DNA from: Candidatus Rariloculaceae bacterium
GTDB lineage: Bacteria; Pseudomonadota; Gammaproteobacteria; Steroidobacterales; Rariloculaceae
Direction of reading: 5' to 3'
Length of the DNA stretch: 64,000 nt
Assembly: GCA_965221035.1 (NCBI GenBank)
Contig: OZ244860.1
Location: 3,312,641-3,376,640 of the forward strand
Every line of letters begins with the position of its first letter. Positions within the stretch are counted from its first letter, which is position 1. This document shows positions 7,544 through 52,149 of the stretch, piece after piece. A program made the position numbers and the translations under genes. Under the pieces are notes generated by a model that did no database searches, had not been told where the DNA came from, and saw only the letters and a list, made by a program, of their open reading frames with translations.

Positions 7544-8323
7544 ATGGCCGGAATCGGAAAGAACGGCGGCAGGATGACAACACCAGGCACCAAGTGGGAC
7601 CTCAAGGGCCGTGTGGCTCTGATCTCCGGCGGCAGCCGCGGCATCGGGGCGGCCTGCGCCGAGGCGATGGTCGATGCCGGCGCGCGGGTGATCGCGGTGG
7701 CGCGCGATCAGGGCGATCTGGACCGGCTGCGAGACCGGTTGGACGGTGCAGTGGAGACGTGGGCCGAGGATGTCGGCGGGCGTTCGTTCCGTCGCCGCCT
7801 CGAACGGCTCGGGCGACTGGATATCCTGTTCAACAACGCGGGTACCAACTCGCCGGGGCCCTTCATCGGCACCCCCGAAGAGGTGGTGGACGAAATGATT
7901 GCCCTGAACGTCCGGGCGATGTTCCTGACGGCCCAGAGCGCCGCAAGGGTGATGCTTCGAGCGGGCAATGGCGGTTCGATCATCAACATGTCTTCCCAGA
8001 TGGGCCATATCGGTGCGGCGAACCGGACTGTCTACTGCATGACCAAGCACGCCGTGGAAGGGTTGACCAAGGCGCTGGGCGTGGAACTGGCGCCGCATGG
8101 CATCCGGGTCAACAGCGTCGCGCCGACCTTCATCGAAACGCCGATGACCCGGCCCATGTTCGAGGACCCGGACTTCAAGCGTTGGGTGCTGGACTGCATC
8201 CCCATGGAACGCATCGGGCAACTTCACGAAGTGGTCGCGGCGGTGATGTTCCTGGCGTCGCCGGATTCCTCGCTGATGACGGGCTCCAGTCTCAGGGTGG
8301 ACGGAGGCTGGACGGCGCGCTGA
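7544..8323 (+). CDS. Short-chain dehydrogenase/reductase (SDR)
   Basis: Cofactor motif LISGGSRGIGAA (TGxxxGIG type), NNAG, and catalytic YCMTKHAVEGLTKAL (YxxxK). An alternative start is ATG 7574. Confidence 0.9.
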   Translation: MAGIGKNGGRMTTPGTKWDLKGRVALISGGSRGIGAACAEAMVDAGARVIAVARDQGDLDRLRDRLDGAVETWAEDVGGRSFRRRLERLGRLDILFNNAGTNSPGPFIGTPEEVVDEMIALNVRAMFLTAQSAARVMLRAGNGGSIINMSSQMGHIGAANRTVYCMTKHAVEGLTKALGVELAPHGIRVNSVAPTFIETPMTRPMFEDPDFKRWVLDCIPMERIGQLHEVVAAVMFLASPDSSLMTGSSLRVDGGWTAR

Positions 8324-8363: not shown

Positions 8364-9263
8364 CTATTCGACCGGCTGCGGTGCAAGCGACCGCAGGTAG
8401 ACCACCAGCGCGTCCAGGTCTTCCTCGGTCATGTTCCGGTAGTACTGGAATGCCATGCTGTCGAGCATTTGCCGTCCGTCGGGTCGGATGCCGTCGGTGA
8501 TGGCGAGCTTGATTTCCTCGTCCGTCCATTCGCCGATGCCCAGGGTCGGATGTGGCGTCACATTGGCCGAGATCACCGTGAAGCCGAGTCCGAAGATGTT
8601 CGGGTAGCTGTTTCCGCCGAGACCGGTGCGGCTGAAATCGTGCCTGCCTTGCACCAGGGGCGTATGGCACTCGGTGCAATGGCCCAGGGCGAGGGCGACG
8701 TAGGTGCCGTAAGCCAGCGGGTCGTCGCGGGAAACGTCGGGGACGGATTCCACGGGCGGACCCCAGTTGGGCGGCAGGGGTATTCGATACTCGCTCCTCG
8801 GCACGACCCGGTTCACCGGCTCCGTGTTGCGCAGATAGGCGACGATCGCGCGTACGTCCGTATCTGAAATGTCACGGTACCACGGTGTGGGCATCGGCGG
8901 GCCGATGATGGTTCCATCCGGCCGGATGCCATCGCGGATGGAGCGGATGATGTCTTCGTCGCTCCAGGTGCCGATACCTGTGGCTTCGTCCATCGTGATG
9001 TTGGGCGCATACGCATTGAACCCGGGCTCCTCGATGACGAACGACCCGGCCAGGTGAAGGTTTTCGATGGGCGTGCCGTCGGACCGCTTGGGCGTGTGGC
9101 AGTTGCCGCAGGCGGCAATGCTTTCCATCAGGTAGGTGCCGCGCTGGAGCAATTCGTCGGACTCCTGGGCGGGGATCGGGGGAGCGCAAACCAGAAATAC
9201 GAAACCGCCCGCCAGGCAGCTCGCGCCCCCGCGCAAGGCCTTTTTCCAAACAGTGGCCATCAT
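8364..9263 (-). CDS. Secreted dihaem c-type cytochrome
   Basis: Two CxxCH motifs (CGNCHTP, CTECHTP). Start ATG 9263 gives the signal-like N-terminus MMATVWKKALRGGASCLAGGFVFLVCAPPIPAQE. This ATG overlaps the stop of the upstream esterase gene (ATGA at 9263-9260). The 661-aa ORF-track version is an out-of-gene extension. Confidence 0.85.
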   Translation of the reverse strand: MMATVWKKALRGGASCLAGGFVFLVCAPPIPAQESDELLQRGTYLMESIAACGNCHTPKRSDGTPIENLHLAGSFVIEEPGFNAYAPNITMDEATGIGTWSDEDIIRSIRDGIRPDGTIIGPPMPTPWYRDISDTDVRAIVAYLRNTEPVNRVVPRSEYRIPLPPNWGPPVESVPDVSRDDPLAYGTYVALALGHCTECHTPLVQGRHDFSRTGLGGNSYPNIFGLGFTVISANVTPHPTLGIGEWTDEEIKLAITDGIRPDGRQMLDSMAFQYYRNMTEEDLDALVVYLRSLAPQPVE

Positions 9264-34568: not shown

Positions 34569-34991
34569 CTAAGGTAAGACGGAGCGTTGGCAGCTGCGTC
34601 TTCCGTTGGCGTCTGGATCAAGTAGTCCAACGCGGATAGTGCGACCGCGATGGCTTTTATGGTTGTCAAGGATCCGCCGGTCGCGACCCGTTCTCGATCT
34701 GTGACAGATAGGCAGGACTAATTCCGTTCCGGCGCGCCGGGACAATTCCATACCACTGCGACGACGGTACTCGCGGCAGACCCGCACGAGATTTTCGCCG
34801 TCGAGAATGCGATTGGCGAACACGACGGGGATCAACTCATCGTGACCTTCCGCAAGGTGTTATCTAGCCGCGACGTAGGCTTGCGCGTCGGCCAAGTCTT
34901 CAGCGGCTTAATACAGTCGCTCGTATACCTCAATGCGAAACACGATCATGTGCTCGCGAGTCGGCGATTCGATTACTTGCACATAGCGCAT
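34569..34991 (-). pseudogene. Decayed toxin-antitoxin remnant (short RelE/ParE-like tail ORF plus frameshifted XRE-type HTH antitoxin)
   Basis: On the minus strand, ATG 34991 to TAA 34908 encodes only MRYVQVIESPTREHMIVFRIEVYERLY. Downstream, three different frames together spell a typical HTH antitoxin: DELIPVVFANRILDGENLVRVCREYRRRSGMELSRRAG / SPAYLSQIENGSRP / LTTIKAIAVALSALDYLI. This implies at least two frameshifts. Confidence 0.5.
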
Positions 34992-35038
34992 TGTTGTCCC
35001 CCGTACTTGTATACGCGACCGCGAGGGCCGTTGACGTA

Positions 35039-35603
35039 TCTGCGGATTGCGGCCGTTTCTTGATTTGCTACACTACAGGCCTGCCCGGTATTCCCACGCG
35101 CTCAAGCTGCGGATTGCGGCCGTTTCTTGATTTGCTACACTACAGTCTTCAAGCGATATGACGCCGATGTCGCTGCGGATTGCGGCCGTTTCTTGATTTG
35201 CTACACTGGTACGGCCTAACGGAAGTCCTCCGCCCATGCTGCGGATTGCGGCCGTTTCTTGATTTGCTACACTGGATTCGCTGGCCCTAAAGGTGTCGGT
35301 AAAGCTGCGGATTGCGGCCGTTTCTTGATTTGCTACACTCACAAATACATGCAGGATTGCGACCTGGGCGCTGCGGATTGCGGCCGTTTCTTGATTTGCT
35401 ACACTGCCGAACCCTTGCGATCCACGATCAGGTTCGCTGCGGATTGCGGCCGTTTCTTGATTTGCTACACTGCCGAACCCTTGCGATCCACGATCAGGTT
35501 CGCTGCGGATTGCGGCCGTTTCTTGATTTGCTACACTCGCGAGAGACATCACACTTCGATTGACCAAGCTGCGGATTGCGGCCGTTTCTTGATTTGCTAC
35601 ACT
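35039..35603 (+). CRISPR. CRISPR array, 9 x 36-nt repeats, 8 spacers (type II-C); strand given is the predicted crRNA sense
   Basis: Repeat (+ strand) is GCTGCGGATTGCGGCCGTTTCTTGATTTGCTACACT. Copies lie at 35039, 35106, 35172, 35238, 35304, 35370, 35436, 35502 and 35568, each 36 nt. Only the first copy deviates (T for G at nt 1). Spacer lengths are 31, 30, 30, 30, 30, 30, 30 and 30 nt. Spacers 6 (35406-35435) and 7 (35472-35501) are identical. Orientation is inferred from the + strand anti-repeat and terminator at 40135-40257. Confidence 0.97.
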
Positions 35604-35652
35604 GCCCGTGATGTAAGGCACTGAATCGTCGCCGGTTTTGTTCGTCCGCTGG

Positions 35653-35979
35653 TCAAAAAAATTCCAGTTGGGCGGGTGGAGTCGGCGGCGATTCACGCGT
35701 TTTTCCGACATAGGTTTCGATGCGGCCAAATTGCTTGTCTGTAATTGTCAGAAATCGCACCTCTCCTGCGGACGGAACACGACTCCCCATCCTGGCTGCG
35801 TGAATCTTGGCGTTCTCGATAGATGCACAGTGCCGTATGTAGACGGAGTACTGCATCATTGTAAATCCGTCCTTAAGGAGGTCTGTGCGAAATCGAACAT
35901 AGGCTTTGCGAGCTTTGGGCGTATTCGTCGGGAGGTCAAACATCGCGATTACCCACATAGTACGCCAGCCCCATGGCAT
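35653..35979 (-). CDS. cas2: CRISPR-associated endoribonuclease Cas2
   Basis: MPWGWRTMWVIAMFDLPTNTPKARKAYVRFRTDLLKDGFTMMQYSVYIRHC... matches the type II Cas2 pattern (MFD.P....ERKAY.KFRK.L...GF.M.Q.SVY). The start is ambiguous: ATG 35979 (chosen, 108 aa), ATG 35958, GTG 36000, or TTG 36018 overlapping the cas1 stop. Confidence 0.85.
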   Translation of the reverse strand: MPWGWRTMWVIAMFDLPTNTPKARKAYVRFRTDLLKDGFTMMQYSVYIRHCASIENAKIHAARMGSRVPSAGEVRFLTITDKQFGRIETYVGKTRESPPTPPAQLEFF

Positions 35980-36014
35980 TGCCTTTGCTGTCCCTACCAC
36001 TTGCCGGTCCGGCT

Positions 36015-36950
36015 TCAACCGATTTCCGAAGCATCTACGAGATCGTATTCCAAAGGTAGTCCTTGGGGCAGAGATAATTTCCGGTCGCCTCCAGTCAAAG
36101 CGCGGCACAGTGATGCGGCACTGGTATGCAGGGCGAGCAGAATTGGTTCCCGCCGTGCGCCCACGATGATCGTTTCGTTGAGCAGAGAAAGAAGTTCAGC
36201 ACGAGTTTCCCGCTCCGCCAAGTCGGGAAACGAGTCGTGAGTAGTCCCCACAATTTGCCGCACTCGCCAGTCTACATAGGGACGGTATGGCTCCAGCAGG
36301 TCGTCCGCTAGGCAAAAGGGATTCCCGCGATGTCGATGATGTACTCCGATCGAGGGAATCAGTCCCGCTGCAACGACGGCACGGGCGACGGCAGCTCGCA
36401 CGATGGCGTAACCGTAATTCAGCAGCGCGTTAATGCCACCCGCTGTTCGGTCTCGTCGAAATGTCTTTCCGAAAAGTCGCGGCCAATACCTTTGCGCAGC
36501 TTGGGCCTCGATATTCGCGGGATCTCCCGAGCGTACGCGGCGTGTCAGTTGGCCAAGCCCGCCATGATTTCCGGTGAAATGCGACAGTACAATGCCCTGC
36601 TGCTCGATCTTGGCCCGCACGATCGCCTGCCAGGCCTGCTTGCGTACCGGTTTGCTGGCTTTGATCTGCGCACGGTGGCGTTCTGTCTGGACGTGATGCG
36701 CATCGAGCGGAAGCATCATTCCGGCGGGGAGATGATCGCGACCCGTGACCATGACTGTTGCACCGGCTTCCAATAACGAAAGAAATACAGATTGTGTGTA
36801 GGTCGCACGGATGTCGTCGACGATCACAACGCCAAGATCTTCAATCGGCAGAGTCACTCTTGGCATACTAGATCGCTCTACCACTAACTGACGGTAGGCG
36901 ACCGAGAGACGGGTTCCCGGGGTTGAGAATTCTACGGTCTTGCGGATCAC
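36015..36950 (-). CDS. cas1: CRISPR-associated endonuclease Cas1 (type II)
   Basis: 311-aa ORF with a GTG start 12 nt after the cas9 stop. Cas1-like strings NALLNYGYAIVRAAVARAV and GVHHRHRGNPFCLADDLLEPYRP. Position is between cas9 and cas2. Confidence 0.9.
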   Translation of the reverse strand: MIRKTVEFSTPGTRLSVAYRQLVVERSSMPRVTLPIEDLGVVIVDDIRATYTQSVFLSLLEAGATVMVTGRDHLPAGMMLPLDAHHVQTERHRAQIKASKPVRKQAWQAIVRAKIEQQGIVLSHFTGNHGGLGQLTRRVRSGDPANIEAQAAQRYWPRLFGKTFRRDRTAGGINALLNYGYAIVRAAVARAVVAAGLIPSIGVHHRHRGNPFCLADDLLEPYRPYVDWRVRQIVGTTHDSFPDLAERETRAELLSLLNETIIVGARREPILLALHTSAASLCRALTGGDRKLSLPQGLPLEYDLVDASEIG

Positions 36951-36962
36951 TTCCAGCCGAAT

Positions 36963-39900
36963 TCAATCGTTTGCGGGATGAATCCGGCCAATAGGATCAA
37001 CTGAAATCTTCGCACCTCCTTTCGATACAATGGCTGTCGGACCAGGATGAAACACTGTTGCCTTACCAGCATCGTTATGGTTCTTCATGACGACTTGACC
37101 ATTTCCCCAGATTTCGGAAACGACTTGTACTCTGAAAATACCGTTTCTCTTTAGCCGCAATGAGTCACCGGGAGACAATGACATCAAGAATTGCGCGTCT
37201 TTTCCGCGTTTGCGACAGACTATTGGTTTTTTTTGTACCAGCCGTCGTGATGCCTCAAACAAGCTGACCACTTCGTGGTCGATACGCCCATCCGGCATCA
37301 GGTAGATTGCAATGTGATGGTTCTTGCCCAAGACGGAAAATCCTGTCGACGTCTTTGCCATGAATTTGATCTGTTGTTTTTTTCGAAGTCGTACCTTGCG
37401 AATTTCCGGCCCCCTTCGCCCGCGCTTGGGGTAGGGCGGGAAAGCCCTCTTCGGATCGCCACCATGAGTGTTTACCCAAGACTCGATGATTTTGCGTACA
37501 TTCTGGTCAGGCCAGAAGTCTTTATTCTTTTCGTTGAGATCGTTCTTGCTCAGATCTTCGACCTTGCGACGCGAGACAAAGTACTGACGGGTTTGCCGAG
37601 ATTTTTTCGTGGTGGTGATTCCCGTATCGCCGTAGACTGTTTCCTTATGTAGGCGTCCAGAGATTTTCTTGCGGACTCGATGCGACACAATGATTTTCGC
37701 AACCGCCTGCTCTGCGTCGCGTCGAATCGTTGCCCAAGGCGGAGGAAGGTGCGGCTGGGCTGCGCTCGGATCATCTCGCCGTTGCCAGTAATGCGAAAGT
37801 TTTTGTGTCATACCGGGATGGCAACAAGCGACCGTCAACGCATCGACCGCATGATGTCTATGGTCGAGACGCGTTTTCTCGCCGTTATCCGCGAGAATGT
37901 TGTTCAGGCCCCAAAGCCGACGCAGCTGGGCGGTTACGCGCCCCGAAACGGCAAAAACCTTTGTCGGGGCTTCCGGACCAATGTCCGGCCAAAGCTTCTT
38001 TAGATAGGCAACGGTTTCGCGAGCGGCGTAACCGGTATCGTTTAATTGCCGCGACTTGAAGGCGTCGGGGATGGATGGTGCCAAGAACTTCTTGATCTTG
38101 CCCGATGACATTCCGATTCCTCCTCGGCGAGCCCTCATGTCATTGAGTCGTTCCGCAATCACGGCCCATTCGTCAGGATCGCTGGCGAACATCTCGGAGG
38201 GAATCCGGTTGCCCTTGAGGAGATTGACGTCCCTCCGGCATAGTGTTTTGTTGCCGAAACTGTTGTCGAGTGAGAGCGAGCGCGGCCAAATATGCTCGAC
38301 CTGAAAGTCTCCAGTGCCAAACAGGGCGCTAAAAGAGATTGAGTCACCTGTGTATGGACACCTCCGGCCGCACTCATTCCAAAGCAGCCATTTCTCTATA
38401 TCTGTCCGTGATGGCTCGGTGATCCCCATATCCTGGAGGTCTTCGCGCGCGTCGATTCGGCGCCTCTCGTGACGCCTAATGCCTTTCGCCTTCTCCTCCC
38501 TCATACGCTTGGAGTTGCCAACGTCGCGGGCGATCTCGACCCTTACGAGGTCAGGTTTGCCGAACATGTCGATCAAATTGTTGACCACCTTCCGCATTTC
38601 GTTCCGGGTTCGTGCAACCGTGGGGTTTCGCAAACCAGCGATGTGTTGGCGTTCTTCGGGGTCGACGGGACTCGGAAGGCGGTCGAACACCTCTCCAGTC
38701 GGTCTGTCGCGATTGGGAAACGCAGTGGCGCGCCAATTCTCCCAATCTGGATCTGCGCTATTGACTACCTCGCCAAAACGAGCACCCATTTCAAGATGCG
38801 GTAGGATCGCCCGAAGCGCATCAATTGAAAACGGCTCCCAGCCTTGCGGCAGCCGTAGAGCCTTGATTTTGGCTGCTTGCTCATCGGAAAGCCCAAACTC
38901 GGAAGCAAAGCAGTGTGCGACTTTGGCGCGGCGTTCTTGACGCTCTGGCGTTGGAAGAATGACCACACGTTGATTGCCGACTCTCTTGTAGTCCGCGTGC
39001 CATAGCTGGTCCGGAAGACTATCCCGAATTTCTTGTTTGCGTTCGTGGCCCTTCCAATCGTCGCCAAAAATGTCCGCTAGCTTCGCCTCGACGGCATTGC
39101 CGAGCAGCTTCCTTTCGCCACCCTCTTCAACGTTAAATTTGAGCTTTTTTTCCGCGCCGGGTTTGCCGCGCCTGCGATACAGCGGTGCAAGCGAACGTCG
39201 GACCGTGGGCCAGGTCATCGTTGCCTGGGTCTGCAATTTGGCAAGAATTGCTCGGCGTTCTTCCTTATCCAGACGCCGTTGGTCGCCACCCACGAGCGCG
39301 AGATTATTAAGCTTCTCGAGCATGCGCCGTTGTTGCGACAGCCAAGAACCCTTTGCACAGAGAGGCGCTCCAGGAACAAAGCGACACCGGCCGAGCGTCT
39401 TCAGGCGCCAGAAGACAGGCCGTTGAAAAAAAATCGCCTCGCGCACTGCGGAGCGGAATGGCGCCGGCACGAGGGACGACCAGACAGTATCAAATTCATC
39501 AGCGACGACCATGCGTGTCGTATGCTCGCCCCGTTTACGCTCATGCGGTCCCCGTTCGGCCAGCCAAGCGCCGAGCGGCTTGTCGGCAAGCTGTAATGCC
39601 TGAGCAGTTTCTATGCGCGCCGACATCGCGTTCTTGTCGTCATTCGTCGGGGATTCGGTGTTAGAGTCAAGAATGCCTTCGACATCACGTCCCTTGAAAT
39701 GCCGTCGCTGCGCGAGGTGGTAGATCGCGCGTCCGACTTCGTGAGAGGTCAGTGGTTCCCCTTCGAATGCTCGCTTGCGGAGATCGTAAGGGTCTTGTTG
39801 CATCACCTCTGCCCAGCCGGACGTGCCTCGTTTTGGCAGCAACCCAGCTTGGTACAATACCTCGCCCAAATTGCGACGGCGTTCACGTCGCCGTCGGAGT

Positions 39901-40085
39901 TGACGCCTGCGAAGTCGTGCTTGACGCCGTTCTTGATTTAGCGGAACACCCTTTGAATCGCGCGCCTCACGAAAAATACGGACGCCTAGACGGTGTATTT
40001 TCCCCGTAGTGCGCTCTGCATTCTGCTCAATCACCGCGTATCCGATAGACGTGGTGCCAATGTCCAGACCGAAAACAAGCGGCAT
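36963..40085 (-). CDS. cas9: Cas9 (type II-C, compact, 1040 aa)
   Basis: RuvC-I FGLDIGTTSIGYAV. Arg-rich bridge helix ERRQARLRRRQLRRRRERRRNL. RuvC-II LVRVEIARD. HNH FQVEHIWPRSLSLDNSFGNKTLCRRDVNLLKGNRIP. RuvC-III LDHRHHAVDALTVA. Followed only by cas1 and cas2. Confidence 0.97.
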   Translation of the reverse strand: MPLVFGLDIGTTSIGYAVIEQNAERTTGKIHRLGVRIFREARDSKGVPLNQERRQARLRRRQLRRRRERRRNLGEVLYQAGLLPKRGTSGWAEVMQQDPYDLRKRAFEGEPLTSHEVGRAIYHLAQRRHFKGRDVEGILDSNTESPTNDDKNAMSARIETAQALQLADKPLGAWLAERGPHERKRGEHTTRMVVADEFDTVWSSLVPAPFRSAVREAIFFQRPVFWRLKTLGRCRFVPGAPLCAKGSWLSQQRRMLEKLNNLALVGGDQRRLDKEERRAILAKLQTQATMTWPTVRRSLAPLYRRRGKPGAEKKLKFNVEEGGERKLLGNAVEAKLADIFGDDWKGHERKQEIRDSLPDQLWHADYKRVGNQRVVILPTPERQERRAKVAHCFASEFGLSDEQAAKIKALRLPQGWEPFSIDALRAILPHLEMGARFGEVVNSADPDWENWRATAFPNRDRPTGEVFDRLPSPVDPEERQHIAGLRNPTVARTRNEMRKVVNNLIDMFGKPDLVRVEIARDVGNSKRMREEKAKGIRRHERRRIDAREDLQDMGITEPSRTDIEKWLLWNECGRRCPYTGDSISFSALFGTGDFQVEHIWPRSLSLDNSFGNKTLCRRDVNLLKGNRIPSEMFASDPDEWAVIAERLNDMRARRGGIGMSSGKIKKFLAPSIPDAFKSRQLNDTGYAARETVAYLKKLWPDIGPEAPTKVFAVSGRVTAQLRRLWGLNNILADNGEKTRLDHRHHAVDALTVACCHPGMTQKLSHYWQRRDDPSAAQPHLPPPWATIRRDAEQAVAKIIVSHRVRKKISGRLHKETVYGDTGITTTKKSRQTRQYFVSRRKVEDLSKNDLNEKNKDFWPDQNVRKIIESWVNTHGGDPKRAFPPYPKRGRRGPEIRKVRLRKKQQIKFMAKTSTGFSVLGKNHHIAIYLMPDGRIDHEVVSLFEASRRLVQKKPIVCRKRGKDAQFLMSLSPGDSLRLKRNGIFRVQVVSEIWGNGQVVMKNHNDAGKATVFHPGPTAIVSKGGAKISVDPIGRIHPAND

Positions 40086-40100
40086 GTGCGATTGTCCCGT

Positions 40101-40128
40101 TTGCGATTCAGTTCAGATGCGCTATTAT
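40101..40128 (+). promoter_or_regulatory. Predicted sigma70-type promoter of the tracrRNA (TTGCGA-16 nt-TATTAT)
   Basis: TTGCGA at 40101-40106 and TATTAT at 40123-40128, with a 16-nt spacer. This places a start near 40135, exactly where complementarity to the CRISPR repeat begins. It lies 38 nt from the cas9 ATG on the opposite strand. Confidence 0.6.
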
Positions 40129-40134
40129 TGCACT

Positions 40135-40257
40135 TGTAGCAAATCGAGAAGCGGTCGATTTACTTTTCGCAGCAAATTGACCCTTTGTGCGGGCTCGGTG
40201 TCCCAAGGTCATCCACCGAAATCCAATGCCCCCGTCAATTGGCGGGGGCTACTTTTG
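40135..40257 (+). ncRNA. Predicted tracrRNA (anti-repeat 40135-40173, 3' hairpins, intrinsic terminator)
   Basis: 40135-40157 (TGTAGCAAATCGAGAAGCGGTCG) pairs with repeat nt 34-12: 23 bp, 3 of them G-U. A 10-nt/5-nt internal loop follows. CGCAGC at 40168-40173 pairs with repeat nt 6-1 (GCUGCG). The RNA ends in a GC hairpin plus U-tract. The 5' end is inferred from the promoter only. Confidence 0.75.
40228..40257 (+). terminator. Rho-independent terminator of the tracrRNA
   Basis: GCCCCCG (40228-40234), loop tcaattgg, CGGGGGC (40243-40249), followed by TACTTTTGT. Confidence 0.8.
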
Positions 40258-40298
40258 TAGTGGCATGTGGCACTTGGAAATTACGCCGGATACCGCGC

Positions 40299-41771
40299 TC
40301 ACAGCAAGTCCGCGACCTGCTCCCTCGAATACTTGAAGGTCTTGTAAGACGGGGCGGAACCGAAGTATTCCGCCACGGTTTCGCCGTCGGCGTTGATCTC
40401 GCGCGCATACTCGTTCACGGTGTCGGTCAGCAGCGTATTCCCGTTCGGCAAGCGCCGAGCACCACCCTGAAAGGGCGCGAAGAATTCGGGGTCTTCCCAG
40501 AACCACGCCTGCTCCGCGGCAAACGGCTGTCCCGGTTCACGCGGGTAGTGGCCGTCCTCGGCCGGTCGCAAGCGCAGTTCATGCACGTTCGAGACGCCCC
40601 GAAGTGCTCTCTGGGCCTGCAACGCGTTGGCGCCCATGGCGCCCATGGCGCCCATACCCATCCCTGCCAGTCCGGTGCCAATCTGGACATTGTTGTTGAA
40701 TATCAGCAGGTTGCCCGCTCTCGGCAGTCCTGCGTCAATCCAGTTGGCGTCATGCTGCTTGAGGAACACGCGGTCATCGGACGTCCCCATGTCGTAGGCG
40801 GCCGGATTGCCGTAACGGAACAGCAGGTCGCCGCCCTGTCCGCTGCGCCCCCCGGTCGATCCCGCGGCCTGCTCCGACGTGGTGCTGTGATCGATGATCC
40901 AGATTTCGTTGTAGATGAAGGAACTGAGCACGACCTGGTCGAGTTCCGGGTGGTAGTCGACACCGTTGAGATGCTGTCGAATCTGGTCGATCGGCGCATA
41001 GGACTCGGGATAGTGCGCGTCGATCCGTTCCGGATGATCCGCCACAACGCCGTAGTTGGGCGCGTCCGGATCGCGGTCCTGGATGATGTGGTCGTGGAAA
41101 TGCCATTCCCAGACGACCTCGGCGGAGCCGTCCTGGAAATTCGGCCGCACCTCGACGACTCCGTCGGACAGCGCCGTGGCCGCGCCCTCGATGTCCCAGC
41201 CGATCGCGGCGGCCTCCTCGGCGGAAAAGGACGTGTAGGTGAGGATCAGGATGTTGCCGTTGGGCATCGGCGTCGCGTCATGGTGAAACCGGTCGATCCC
41301 GACGTCGGTTGATTCGACCTCCCAGATCACGTCGCCCCGGGGATCGGCGATTTGAACAACCGACGCCTGCGGTACTCCACCCAACGGGTCTCTGGCCGTG
41401 GCGCCTGTAACCCGATCACCCATGCGCAGGATTCGACCGCCCGGAAGCACGTGGGCCGATACCCCGCCGCCGGTGAGATTGGTTTCCCACCGTTGGACGA
41501 CGCGGCCTTCGTCGTCCACCAGCAAGCTGTAGTTATCGAAGTCGGCGCCGATCTCGTCTGTGCGGTGCCAGAACAGGTAACCGTCGAAGAGTTCGGCGGG
41601 CCGATGCACTTCCACGCGCACGTCCGGTAGGCCACCGGTCGCCAGCAGCGCGCCGTCGTCTTGGGCGTCGGCGATCTGGAGCGGCAATCCTGCAACCAGG
41701 AGGCAGGCGCCGAGCGCGCCGCCGCCGGCACGCGTGCCCGGTGATCCGGGATGTTCAGCCGGACAAGGCAC
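40299..41771 (-). CDS. Arylsulfotransferase-like (ASST type 2) secreted beta-propeller protein
   Basis: Signal-like N-terminus GGGALGACLLVAGLPLQIADAQ. Strings RFHHDATPMPNGNILILTY, VWEWHFHDHIIQD and HLNGVDYHPELDQVVLSSFIYNEIWIIDHSTT resemble proteins annotated as aryl-sulfate sulfotransferase. Contains an in-frame 9-bp x3 repeat (40629-40655, MGAMGAMGA). The GTG start overlaps the DoxX stop by 1 nt, and the true start is uncertain. Confidence 0.55.
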   Translation of the reverse strand: MPCPAEHPGSPGTRAGGGALGACLLVAGLPLQIADAQDDGALLATGGLPDVRVEVHRPAELFDGYLFWHRTDEIGADFDNYSLLVDDEGRVVQRWETNLTGGGVSAHVLPGGRILRMGDRVTGATARDPLGGVPQASVVQIADPRGDVIWEVESTDVGIDRFHHDATPMPNGNILILTYTSFSAEEAAAIGWDIEGAATALSDGVVEVRPNFQDGSAEVVWEWHFHDHIIQDRDPDAPNYGVVADHPERIDAHYPESYAPIDQIRQHLNGVDYHPELDQVVLSSFIYNEIWIIDHSTTSEQAAGSTGGRSGQGGDLLFRYGNPAAYDMGTSDDRVFLKQHDANWIDAGLPRAGNLLIFNNNVQIGTGLAGMGMGAMGAMGANALQAQRALRGVSNVHELRLRPAEDGHYPREPGQPFAAEQAWFWEDPEFFAPFQGGARRLPNGNTLLTDTVNEYAREINADGETVAEYFGSAPSYKTFKYSREQVADLL

Positions 41772-51450: not shown

Positions 51451-52149
51451 CTATGCAGCTCTGGTGGTGTTTGGCGGATCCCCGGGTGGGGGCGGTTCGG
51501 GCAAAGGCGTCAGGTCCCTGCGCATGAACACTGCTTCGAGCAGGCCTTCTATCCGAGCCAATCGCTCTCGCAATTCGCCCAATTCCTTTCGCTGCCCGGC
51601 CATTTCGCTGCTTTGCGAATCGAATCCGCGCCTCATTTCCTCGCGCTGCGACTCCAGTGCGTCCAGCGTATGCTTGCTGTGCGACTCCAAAGCGCCTTGC
51701 ATATCCTTGCGGTGCGACTCCAATGCGTCCTGCGTACGCTTGCGGTGAGACTCCAACGCGTCGTGCGTATGCATACGGTGCGACTCCAATGCGCCTTGCA
51801 TATCCTTGCGGTGCGACTCCAATGCGCCTTGCATATCCTCGCGGTGCGACTCCAATGCACCTTGCATATCCTCGCGGTGCAACTCAAATGCATGCAGCAA
51901 CTGCTCTCGGTGCGACTCCATTGCACCCTGCGTATGCGTGCGATGCGACTCCAACCCGACCTGCATCTCCTTGCGCTGCGACTCCAACCCGTCCTGCATC
52001 TCCTTGCGGTGCGTCGCCAACGCATCCTGCAGATCCTTGCGCTGCAAGTTCATTTCCTTGCGCAGTTCGCGGATGTCCTGTCGCAGCCACGCGAACTGGC
52101 CAAGCACGAGCGCACCCAGCGCGATGAAACCTGCAAGCGTCATATTCAC
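51451..52149 (-). CDS. Membrane-anchored His-rich protein built from ~14 tandem 11-residue repeats (consensus MQGALESHRKD)
   Basis: N-terminal TM helix MNMTLAGFIALGALVLGQFAWL. Then repeated units: LQDALATHRKE MQDGLESQRKE MQVGLESHRTH ... MQGALESHRED MQGALESHRKD MQGALESHRMH ... The tail is RERLARIEGLLEAVF plus a Pro-rich end. This is the only frame with a start, a TM anchor and non-degenerate composition. Confidence 0.7.
   Translation of the reverse strand: MNMTLAGFIALGALVLGQFAWLRQDIRELRKEMNLQRKDLQDALATHRKEMQDGLESQRKEMQVGLESHRTHTQGAMESHREQLLHAFELHREDMQGALESHREDMQGALESHRKDMQGALESHRMHTHDALESHRKRTQDALESHRKDMQGALESHSKHTLDALESQREEMRRGFDSQSSEMAGQRKELGELRERLARIEGLLEAVFMRRDLTPLPEPPPPGDPPNTTRAA
51615..52076. 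repeat. 33-bp tandem repeat array, ~14 units (well conserved 51648-52010)
   Basis: The unit start GCGACTCCA recurs at 51648, 51681, 51714, 51747, 51780, 51813, 51846, 51879, 51912, 51945 and 51978, exactly 33 nt apart. Degenerate units lie at 51615, 52011 and 52044. The units at 51681 and 51780 are identical, and 51813 differs from them by 1 nt. All six frames are open across the array. Confidence 0.95.

Follow-up and report, generated by a model that had tools for sequence, protein, structure and literature searches.

The tracrRNA gene and its characterised relatives

Two Cas9 proteins of clade IX, Ghh2 (1037 amino acids (aa); protospacer adjacent motif (PAM), N3CAC) and Cme4 (1029 aa; PAM, N3CAT), have been described by Gasiunas et al. 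(2020, Nat Commun 11:5512; PMC7606464, supplementary file 4), who listed the CRISPR RNA (crRNA), the trans-activating crRNA (tracrRNA) and the single-guide RNA (sgRNA) of each together with the determined PAM. The main text of that paper (PMC7606464) calls the clade IX guides "longer, more complex" and contains no mention of a pseudoknot. Herein, we analysed a related locus in a 64,000-nucleotide (nt) stretch of contig OZ244860.1 from Candidatus Rariloculaceae bacterium (hereafter the window, numbered from its first letter). Positions 40136 to about 40255 of the forward (+) strand very probably encode the tracrRNA of a type II-C CRISPR-Cas9 system, belonging to the guide family of Ghh2 and Cme4 (clade IX) and of Parvibaculum-like loci. 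An earlier note on this DNA had proposed a + strand tracrRNA that works with the divergent cas9 and has its own promoter, an upper and a lower stem parted by a bulge, and a terminator. That proposal is upheld by the covariance model R1, by co-variation, by strand-specific wobble pairs and by the homologous guides.

The crRNA, tracrRNA and sgRNA of Ghh2 and Cme4 are homologous to those of the window and have the same orientation. In all three systems, the repeat is of the type GCUGCGG...UUUGCUA..., the anti-repeat starts (U/G)GUAGCAAA..., and the parts of the RNA follow one another in the same order: a lower stem, an AAGCAA(A/U) linker, helix A, a GGGCU(C/G)GG..CCC core, the 3' arm of helix B, and a GC hairpin with a U-tract. 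Both arms of helices A and B are present in the Ghh2 and Cme4 guides. The arms of helix B differ in sequence (CGGUG/CACCG in the window, CGGCA/UGCCG in Ghh2 and GGGCG/CGCCC in Cme4), and the 5-nt bulge on the tracr side of the window duplex is absent from Ghh2. The Cas9 of the window is similar in size to both proteins and shares 52% identity with Ghh2 over the first 400 aa. Another Cas9 of about this size is PlCas9 of Parvibaculum lavamentivorans, whose PAM is N3CAT. In a passage of PMC6859307, PlCas9 is cited as validated in vitro.

With the type II-C systems of Neisseria meningitidis and Campylobacter jejuni, the locus shares a cas9-cas1-cas2 operon, 36-nt repeats and an array that is read opposite to the cas operon; the latter orientation was mapped experimentally in type II-C arrays of both genera, and most anti-repeats are located upstream of cas9 (PMC3737331). 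Promoters within the repeats have been documented in both species (PMC3737331, PMC5965381), and in the window a promoter-like element is found at the 3' end of the repeat. At a type II-C locus a tracrRNA is to be expected, the family has characterised members, and the general view of Cas9 systems is unchanged. What the analysis adds is a corrected anatomy of the guide, a usable sgRNA design and a pseudoknot supported by covariation.

Relatives were collected by searching a single genome of each species with a Cas9 alignment; this gave 80 loci, almost all of them from metagenome-assembled genomes (MAGs) of uncultured Alpha- or Gammaproteobacteria. The covariance model R1 was built from 30 of these relatives, with the window excluded. 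In the window, R1 matched 40135-40264 (+) over model positions 1-130 with 133.6 bits (E about 1e-36), and the other significant matches (E <= 0.0014) were to the repeats only, at 17-18 bits. Among the relatives, 44 of the 80 loci had exactly one R1 site each, and every one of these sites lay upstream of cas9 and on the opposite strand. A BLAST comparison located the tracr sequence on the strand opposite to cas9 in 33 of the 80, at 44-82 nt upstream of the ATG except in L005 and L022. Nucleotides 1-84 of the tracrRNA were 85-95% identical in most of these 33 loci, in which the Cas9 proteins are about 50-71% identical. The Parvibaculum-type loci L010 (a Parvibaculum sp. MAG) and L064 have the same layout as the window, with Cas9 proteins 58-59% identical to that of the window and tracrRNAs that score 111 bits with R1.

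Some of the relatives showed peculiarities of their own. In L005 (about 7856-7985) and L022 (about 8534-8664), 2.0 kb and 1.3 kb, respectively, separate the tracrRNA gene from cas9 (start, 10001), in place of about 50 nt, with an insertion between them. L022 comes from the same MAG as L012, and the Cas9 matches of both stop at residue 853. L036 (9806-9926; 62.8 bits) has kept the core and terminator beside a degenerate anti-repeat, and no CRISPR array was found within 10 kb; this locus may be decaying. Long arrays of the same repeat family were present in the 10 kb examined at L004 (at least 74 repeats), L008 (at least 115), L020 (at least 131, reaching the end of the 10-kb stretch) and L064 (at least 76). 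Open frames of at least 150 codons upstream of cas9 occurred on both strands in the GC-rich genomes of relatives and were uninformative.

Repeat duplex, promoter and terminator

The 39 nt at the 5' end of the tracrRNA form a duplex with the CRISPR repeat in its + strand orientation. The earlier count of 23 consecutive pairs with repeat nt 34-12, three of them G-U, was confirmed; this run, at 40135-40157, is the longest in the 64 kb and unique there, the runner-up having 15 pairs on the + strand and the longest on the - strand 12. Sites at 7601, 45886 and 61511 gave strong duplex energies and were rejected as GC-rich and broken by loops, their longest uninterrupted runs being of at most 15 pairs. 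In the in-silico fold of crRNA with tracrRNA that had been suggested, the repeat and 40135-40173 cofolded at -49.8 kcal/mol on the + strand.

These figures also bear on the strand. An inverted repeat is in principle complementary on both strands, and many type II-A arrays run with the cas operon (PMC3737331), which would suit a pair of RNAs on the - strand, the array being co-transcribed with the cas operon and the tracrRNA running from about 40173 leftwards into the start of cas9. On that strand, however, the cofold falls to -32.2 kcal/mol and the three non-Watson-Crick pairs of 40135-40157, which are G-U only in the + sense, become A-C mismatches. The same holds for the relatives, whose wobbles are all G-U in the + sense (26 loci) and include one U-G pair kept in 21 of the 26. 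Moreover, a - strand anti-repeat would run into the ribosome-binding site and coding sequence of cas9, and the conserved promoter, core and terminator all lie on the + strand, the orientation of the Ghh2 and Cme4 guides. We therefore hold a - strand origin to be exceedingly improbable. The array was assigned to the + strand because the G-U pairs are legal there and because the guides of the characterised relatives have this orientation.

Read from the spacer, the + strand duplex opens with an 8-bp lower stem and a 2x2 U/U loop; a single C:G pair and a tracr-side bulge of 5 nt come next, followed by the 23-bp upper stem. The 6-bp stem CGCAGC/GCUGCG that had been placed next to the spacer is present, with CGCAGC at 40168-40173 pairing with repeat nt 1-6. 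The loop described between the two stems, 10 nt (40158-40167) against 5 nt (repeat nt 7-11), is a legitimate reading, but the energy-minimised cofold gains the pairs C40163:G11, U40166-A8 and U40167-G7 over it, and the bulge, single pair, 2x2 loop and longer lower stem describe it better.

The duplex changes with the repeat of each locus. Among the 26 loci, duplex position 16 is occupied by A-U in 16 and by G-C in 10, and C-G, U-A or G-C is found at position 18. In the distant loci L026, L028, L032, L040, L042 and L044, the pairs are extensively changed and yet still match. Compensatory changes were also seen in the lower stem, in L014 (repeat GUUGCG, tracr CGCAAC) and in L019 (repeat GCUGUG, tracr CACAG(G)C). 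The tracr-side bulge is an insertion in one subgroup of relatives, mostly of 4-5 nt (9 nt in L014); this subgroup includes the window, L001-L006, L008, L012, L015, L016, L020, L041 and L043, and its bulges read AUUUA, GUUUC or AUUUC. The bulge is absent from the Parvibaculum-like subgroup (L007, L010, L017, L023, L045 and L064), in which the duplex is near-continuous, with the 2x2 loop and a one-nt A bulge in the lower stem.

The promoter claimed upstream, TTGCGA-16 nt-TATTAT, was recovered as the sole sigma-70-like match on either strand of 34800-40500. On the tracr strand of the relatives, TTGnnn-N16/17-TAnnnT starting less than 80 nt from the cas9 ATG was found in 30 of 43 loci, with a TTG(C/A) box as the -35 at the matching place; among the flanks listed, the -10, (C)TAnnnT, mostly ends 6 nt ahead of the anti-repeat. 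It is this conservation in register, and not the match itself, that lends the promoter weight. According to Chylinski et al. (2013), a promoter and a Rho-independent terminator are supportive of a tracrRNA and not essential.

The start of transcription had been put near 40135, and the length of the RNA at approximately 120 nt. The pair T40135:A34, at tracr nt 1, is present in only 10 of the 26 loci, and nt 2 is nearly always a paired purine; since G40136 also lies 8 nt past the -10, it is more likely than T40135 to be the predicted start, and the primary RNA would then be of about 120 nt. Only one promoter-like site lies ahead of the tracrRNA, the sequence upstream of it being cas9 coding sequence. 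In Streptococcus pyogenes, a long form of the tracrRNA, 5'-extended from a second upstream promoter, reportedly guides Cas9 to the cas9 promoter, a finding of 2021 credited to Workman et al.

At the 3' end, the hairpin GCCCCCG-tcaattgg-CGGGGGC, described before together with UACUUUU, was located at 40228-40249; in the terminator scan it has 9 pairs (8 G-C) and a 4-nt loop, is followed by TACTTTTG at 40250-40257, and is the strongest terminator-like site of the region scanned. The sequence of the terminator is different in every relative and the hairpin is kept, with all 9 pairs changed on both sides. The same hairpin lies 50 nt past the stop of an arylsulfotransferase-like gene (40299-41771) and is terminator-like on the - strand as well, where AUUGGAUUU follows. 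It may act in both directions, and if it does, cas9 would need a promoter inside the tracr gene.

Several points weigh against the assignment as a tracrRNA gene. A lone promoter match is not above chance, 2.6 +/- 1.5 being expected from shuffled sequences, and the terminator is followed by an interrupted U-tract (UACUUUUG). Both ends of the RNA and its processing by ribonuclease III (RNase III) are predictions. In Rfam 15, no match was obtained to 40101-40257 (E <= 10) or to the whole window (gathering thresholds), and no curated Rfam family covers this tracrRNA. None of the 7 unique spacers matched phage or plasmid records by blastn, nor did the 3' halves of three spacers match IMG/VR, and the spacers therefore give no independent check of activity or of the PAM side.

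Considering the chance-level promoter match, the proposed descent of tracrRNAs from degenerate repeats (PMC3737331) and the position of the hairpin, which could serve the arylsulfotransferase-like gene, we asked how well the region fits a decayed orphan repeat that has lost its function, the promoter and hairpin being coincidental or the hairpin ending that neighbouring gene. A relic of this kind would not be expected to stay 85-95% identical over the 84 nt from the start in most of the 33 loci where Cas9 itself is only about 50-71% identical. Nor does it fit a single copy per locus at a fixed place, or the co-variation, which links the anti-repeat to the repeat of its own locus and is seen inside helix A, helix B and the terminator as well. 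We give a functionless relic next to no credence, and a tracrRNA gene remains by far the best account of the region.

A candidate pseudoknot in the 3' core

In the earlier note, the lower stem was followed by about 55 further nt leading to the terminator hairpin. The spacing, 54 nt, stands; this sequence, however, is the most conserved part of the tracrRNA and, judging from covariation, forms a pseudoknot that was absent from the earlier model. On the strand opposite to cas9 and roughly 100 nt upstream of it, the core motif GGG(C/U)U(C/G)GG-n-CCC was found in 46 loci (43 of L001-L045, and L056, L064 and L069); it was not found in L030 and L038.

Two helices were recognised in the core, and they cross one another (Table 1). 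In helix A, all five pairs show changes on both sides among 44 distinct sequences. In helix B, which joins the loop enclosed by helix A to the strand 3 nt downstream of it, an alignment-free count over 45 related loci and the window gave five Watson-Crick pairs out of five in 40 of the 46 sequences and four in the rest. Six combinations of helix B arms occur: CGGUG/CACCG, CGGCA/UGCCG, CGGCG/CGCCG, GGGCG/CGCCC, GGGCA/UGCCC and CGGUA/UACCG; the first is that of most of the window subgroup and the second that of most of the Parvibaculum-like subgroup. For the structure as a whole, 94.3% of the cells were paired in 45 aligned sequences, and 17 of the 22 pairs were changed on both sides. The observed covariation score was reached by none of 500 shuffles, slid controls were 36-52% paired, and a smaller alignment gave the same covariation picture. 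The alignment was fitted to helices A and C and the terminator, towards which these counts lean; the signal of helix B is free of this bias because helix B is not part of R1.

Since helices A and B cross, their coexistence makes the core a pseudoknot. We propose, with moderate confidence, that the core is an H-type pseudoknot and not a simple nexus hairpin, its loop pairing with the strand just 3' of helix A. The alternative is a tracrRNA with nested 3' hairpins (UGACC..UUG..GGGC-loop-GUCC..CAA..GGUCA), that is, a conventional nexus followed by the terminator. The minimum-energy fold of 40174-40257 is indeed nested (-30.6 kcal/mol, z = -2.2), and a 2026 preprint presents two stem-loops after the duplex as the canonical architecture of type II-C sgRNAs (bioRxiv 10.64898/2026.08.17.745178). 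When helix B was forced in a nested model, the energies were about equal (-10.2 vs -10.5 kcal/mol), so energy does not decide the matter. Covariation, in contrast, speaks against the nested fold: its inner pairs never change on both sides, and 14 and 17 of 33 sequences break them, whereas helix B is perfect in 40 of 46 with six arm combinations, helix A has independent support, and only a pseudoknot allows both to form. Furthermore, non-nested folds that sequence-based prediction had not given have been reported for the guides of CjCas9 and BlCas9 (PMC11222456, PMC12339737). We thus consider the nested fold unlikely. An RNAalifold run on the tracrRNA by itself folded the anti-repeat onto the core, which we rejected as an artefact of the missing crRNA partner; the same run exposed helix B.

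The pseudoknot has its own weak points. The evidence for it is all of one kind, covariation, and part of the helix B signal is the split between two subgroups, although the six arm combinations argue for several events. Within the core, GGG and CCC never vary, and helix C is consequently neither supported nor refuted.

Loops that pair with a downstream strand have precedents. The CjCas9 and BlCas9 guides contain triple helices (PMC11222456), and in the pseudoknot of NsCas9d (Cas9d), nt 146-149 pair with the P3 loop (PMC12339737), in a paper that calls pseudoknots rare in type II systems. In these three and in the IscB omega-RNA, as proposed for the window, a hairpin loop pairs with a downstream single strand, and the pairing is missed by ordinary secondary-structure prediction. 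The window differs from them in that the downstream arm comes 3 nt after helix A and before the terminator, the sequences are unrelated, and the fold is taken from covariation only. If the pseudoknot is real, the clade of type II-C Cas9 proteins of 1,030-1,040 aa would keep a loop-to-tail fold like those of the IscB omega-RNA, Cas9d and CjCas9, and a covariation-supported, non-nested fold that lies outside standard sgRNA design pipelines would be added for a type II-C guide.

The layout had been said to suggest an sgRNA directly, and a design could indeed be derived for the uncharacterised 1040-aa Cas9: the guide followed by GCUGCGGAUUGCGGCCGUUUCU-GAAA-AGAAGCGGUCGAUUUACUUUUCGCAGCAAAUUGACCCUUUGUGCGGGCUCGGUGUCCCAAGGUCAUCCACCGAAAUCCAAUGCCCCCGUCAAUUGGCGGGGGCUACUUUU, which folds as intended in silico. 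The sgRNA should not be cut before 40218, because one arm of helix B would then be lost.

Given what is known of type II systems (PMC3737331, PMC5965381), the tracrRNA would anneal to each repeat of the + strand array transcripts, and the long 23-bp upper stem would be a substrate for RNase III. Cas9 would bind the lower stem together with the bulge and the pseudoknotted core and, guided by the dual RNA, would cleave DNA beside a 3' PAM, which is N3CAC or N3CAT in the characterised relatives. The crRNAs may also start from the promoter-like elements in each repeat, as in Neisseria and Campylobacter, and transcription of cas9 would pass through the tracr promoter.

The cas9 start and the surrounding locus

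The -10 box was confirmed to begin 38 nt from the cas9 ATG on the other strand, as noted earlier. The -35, which starts 15 nt past the ATG, is directly next to the complement of the cas9 ribosome-binding site; the tracrRNA gene begins 49 nt upstream of cas9, in divergent orientation. The closeness of tracr promoter and cas9 start codon is family-wide, the distance being about 9-26 nt in most relatives. From this geometry the earlier note had concluded that the two promoters must be back-to-back or overlapping and had hinted at coupled regulation. The geometry is real; a cas9 promoter, in contrast, was neither identified nor shown to be conserved. A consensus scan of the - strand of 34800-40500 gave none, and the relaxed pattern TTGnnn-N15-18-TAnnnT on the cas9 strand (40086-40330 of the window and the matching regions of 42 loci) occurred in 4 of 43 loci, the window included, at scattered sites with no conserved place. 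The candidate of the window, TTGCTG-18-TAATTT, ends 192 nt upstream of the cas9 start, on the far side of the tracr terminator, and was rejected as not conserved. The idea of a single -10 used in both directions (TGC-AATAAT on the - strand, complementary to 40124-40132) was dropped, its TG not being conserved in relatives.

With the -35 only 15 nt from the ATG, the cas9 mRNA must start inside or beyond the tracr promoter. The same distance means that a leader or promoter of cas9 must overlap this region, and the conservation described above might then come mainly from - strand control elements of cas9. The scatter of the relaxed promoter pattern, in 4 of 43 loci only, speaks against this, as do the changes themselves, which follow the helices of the + strand RNA and include G-U pairs whose - strand counterparts would be mismatches. 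We judge it very unlikely that cas9 control is the main source of the conservation; the two roles are compatible. A second reading, weaker than that of the pseudoknot, is that cas9 has no recognisable promoter of its own and that its mRNA would be made through the tracr promoter, in which case the two genes would interfere with each other's transcription family-wide. Transcriptional interference or an antisense leader is possible on the geometry, and coupled regulation of tracrRNA and cas9 is a guess.

Table 1. Positions of the tracrRNA parts and of the neighbouring genes in the window
Feature	Positions	Strand	Details
tracrRNA -35 box TTGCGA	40101..40106	+	promoter scan; conserved place in relatives
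tracrRNA -10 box TATTAT	40123..40128	+	16 nt from -35; promoter scan; conserved in relatives
anti-repeat (upper stem)	40135..40157	+	23 consecutive pairs with repeat nt 34-12, 3 G-U
bulge and internal loop	40158..40165	+	AUUUA bulge 40158-62; C40163:G11; UU 40164-65 facing repeat U9-U10; cofold
lower stem UUCGCAGC	40166..40173	+	pairs with repeat nt 8-1 (GCUGCGGA): 6 G-C-rich pairs, G-U and A-U; cofold
helix A 5' arm UGACC	40178..40182	+	pairs with 40207-40211
near-invariant core GGGCUCGGUGUCCC (GGGCTCGGTGTCCC in window)	40191..40204	+	enclosed by helix A; GGG/CCC possible 3-bp helix C
helix B 5' arm CGGUG	40196..40200	+	inside core
helix A 3' arm GGUCA	40207..40211	+	pairs with 40178-40182
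helix B 3' arm CACCG	40214..40218	+	pairs with 40196-40200; 3 nt after helix A; crosses helix A
intrinsic terminator GCCCCCGUC-AAUU-GGCGGGGGC, then UACUUUUG	40228..40257	+	terminator scan
cas9	36963..40085	-	1040 aa; TIGR01865 at E 1e-170; divergent from tracrRNA gene
cas1	36015..36950	-	type II, NMENI subtype; TIGR03639 at E 2e-74
open frame holding cas2	35653..36108	-	TIGR01573 at E 1e-15, frame residues 51-141 matched
CRISPR array	35039..35603	read +	9 repeats of 36 nt (GCTGCGGATTGCGGCCGTTTCTTGATTTGCTACACT, crRNA sense), 8 spacers of 30-31 nt
arylsulfotransferase-like gene	40299-41771	-	Pfam PF05935; upstream of cas9, co-directional, beyond tracr terminator

The cas9 ATG at 40085 fits the N-terminus MPLVFGLDIGTTSIG with the RuvC-I motif. 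The closest solved Cas9 chains are of about 1,085 residues (E 1e-53 to 1e-59, mainly over the HNH/RuvC region), and from their PDB codes we take them to be GeoCas9 and Nme1/Nme2Cas9. The true start of cas2 is probably internal to the 35653-36108 frame, near 35960. No other cas family, such as csn2 or cas4, was found in the five flanking frames tested; the locus holds cas9, cas1 and cas2 only and is thus of type II-C. The tracrRNA gene is intergenic, between the cas9 ATG (40085) and the stop of the neighbouring gene (40299), and lies outside the array. The array adjoins cas2 (its 3' end at 35603, the cas2 end at 35653), and its direction of reading, on the + strand, is opposite to that of the cas genes.

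Within the array, the most cas-distal repeat, at 35039, carries T at nt 1, where the remaining repeats, all alike, have G; the degenerate terminal repeat thus stands at the cas-distal end of the array, its 5' end in the crRNA sense. The adjacent spacers at 35406-35435 and 35472-35501 are identical (GCCGAACCCTTGCGATCCACGATCAGGTTC), one repeat-spacer unit having been duplicated. The promoter-like element of the repeat lies on the + strand and consists of TTGCGG (nt 9-14), 16 nt and TACACT (nt 31-36), with 7 of 12 consensus positions matched; it shares the layout of the tracr promoter (TTGCGA-16-TATTAT), and its -10-like box ends at the border of repeat and spacer. Elsewhere in the window, at 51614-52045, a tandem repeat of 13 copies of a 33-nt unit (78% match) is unrelated to the CRISPR locus.

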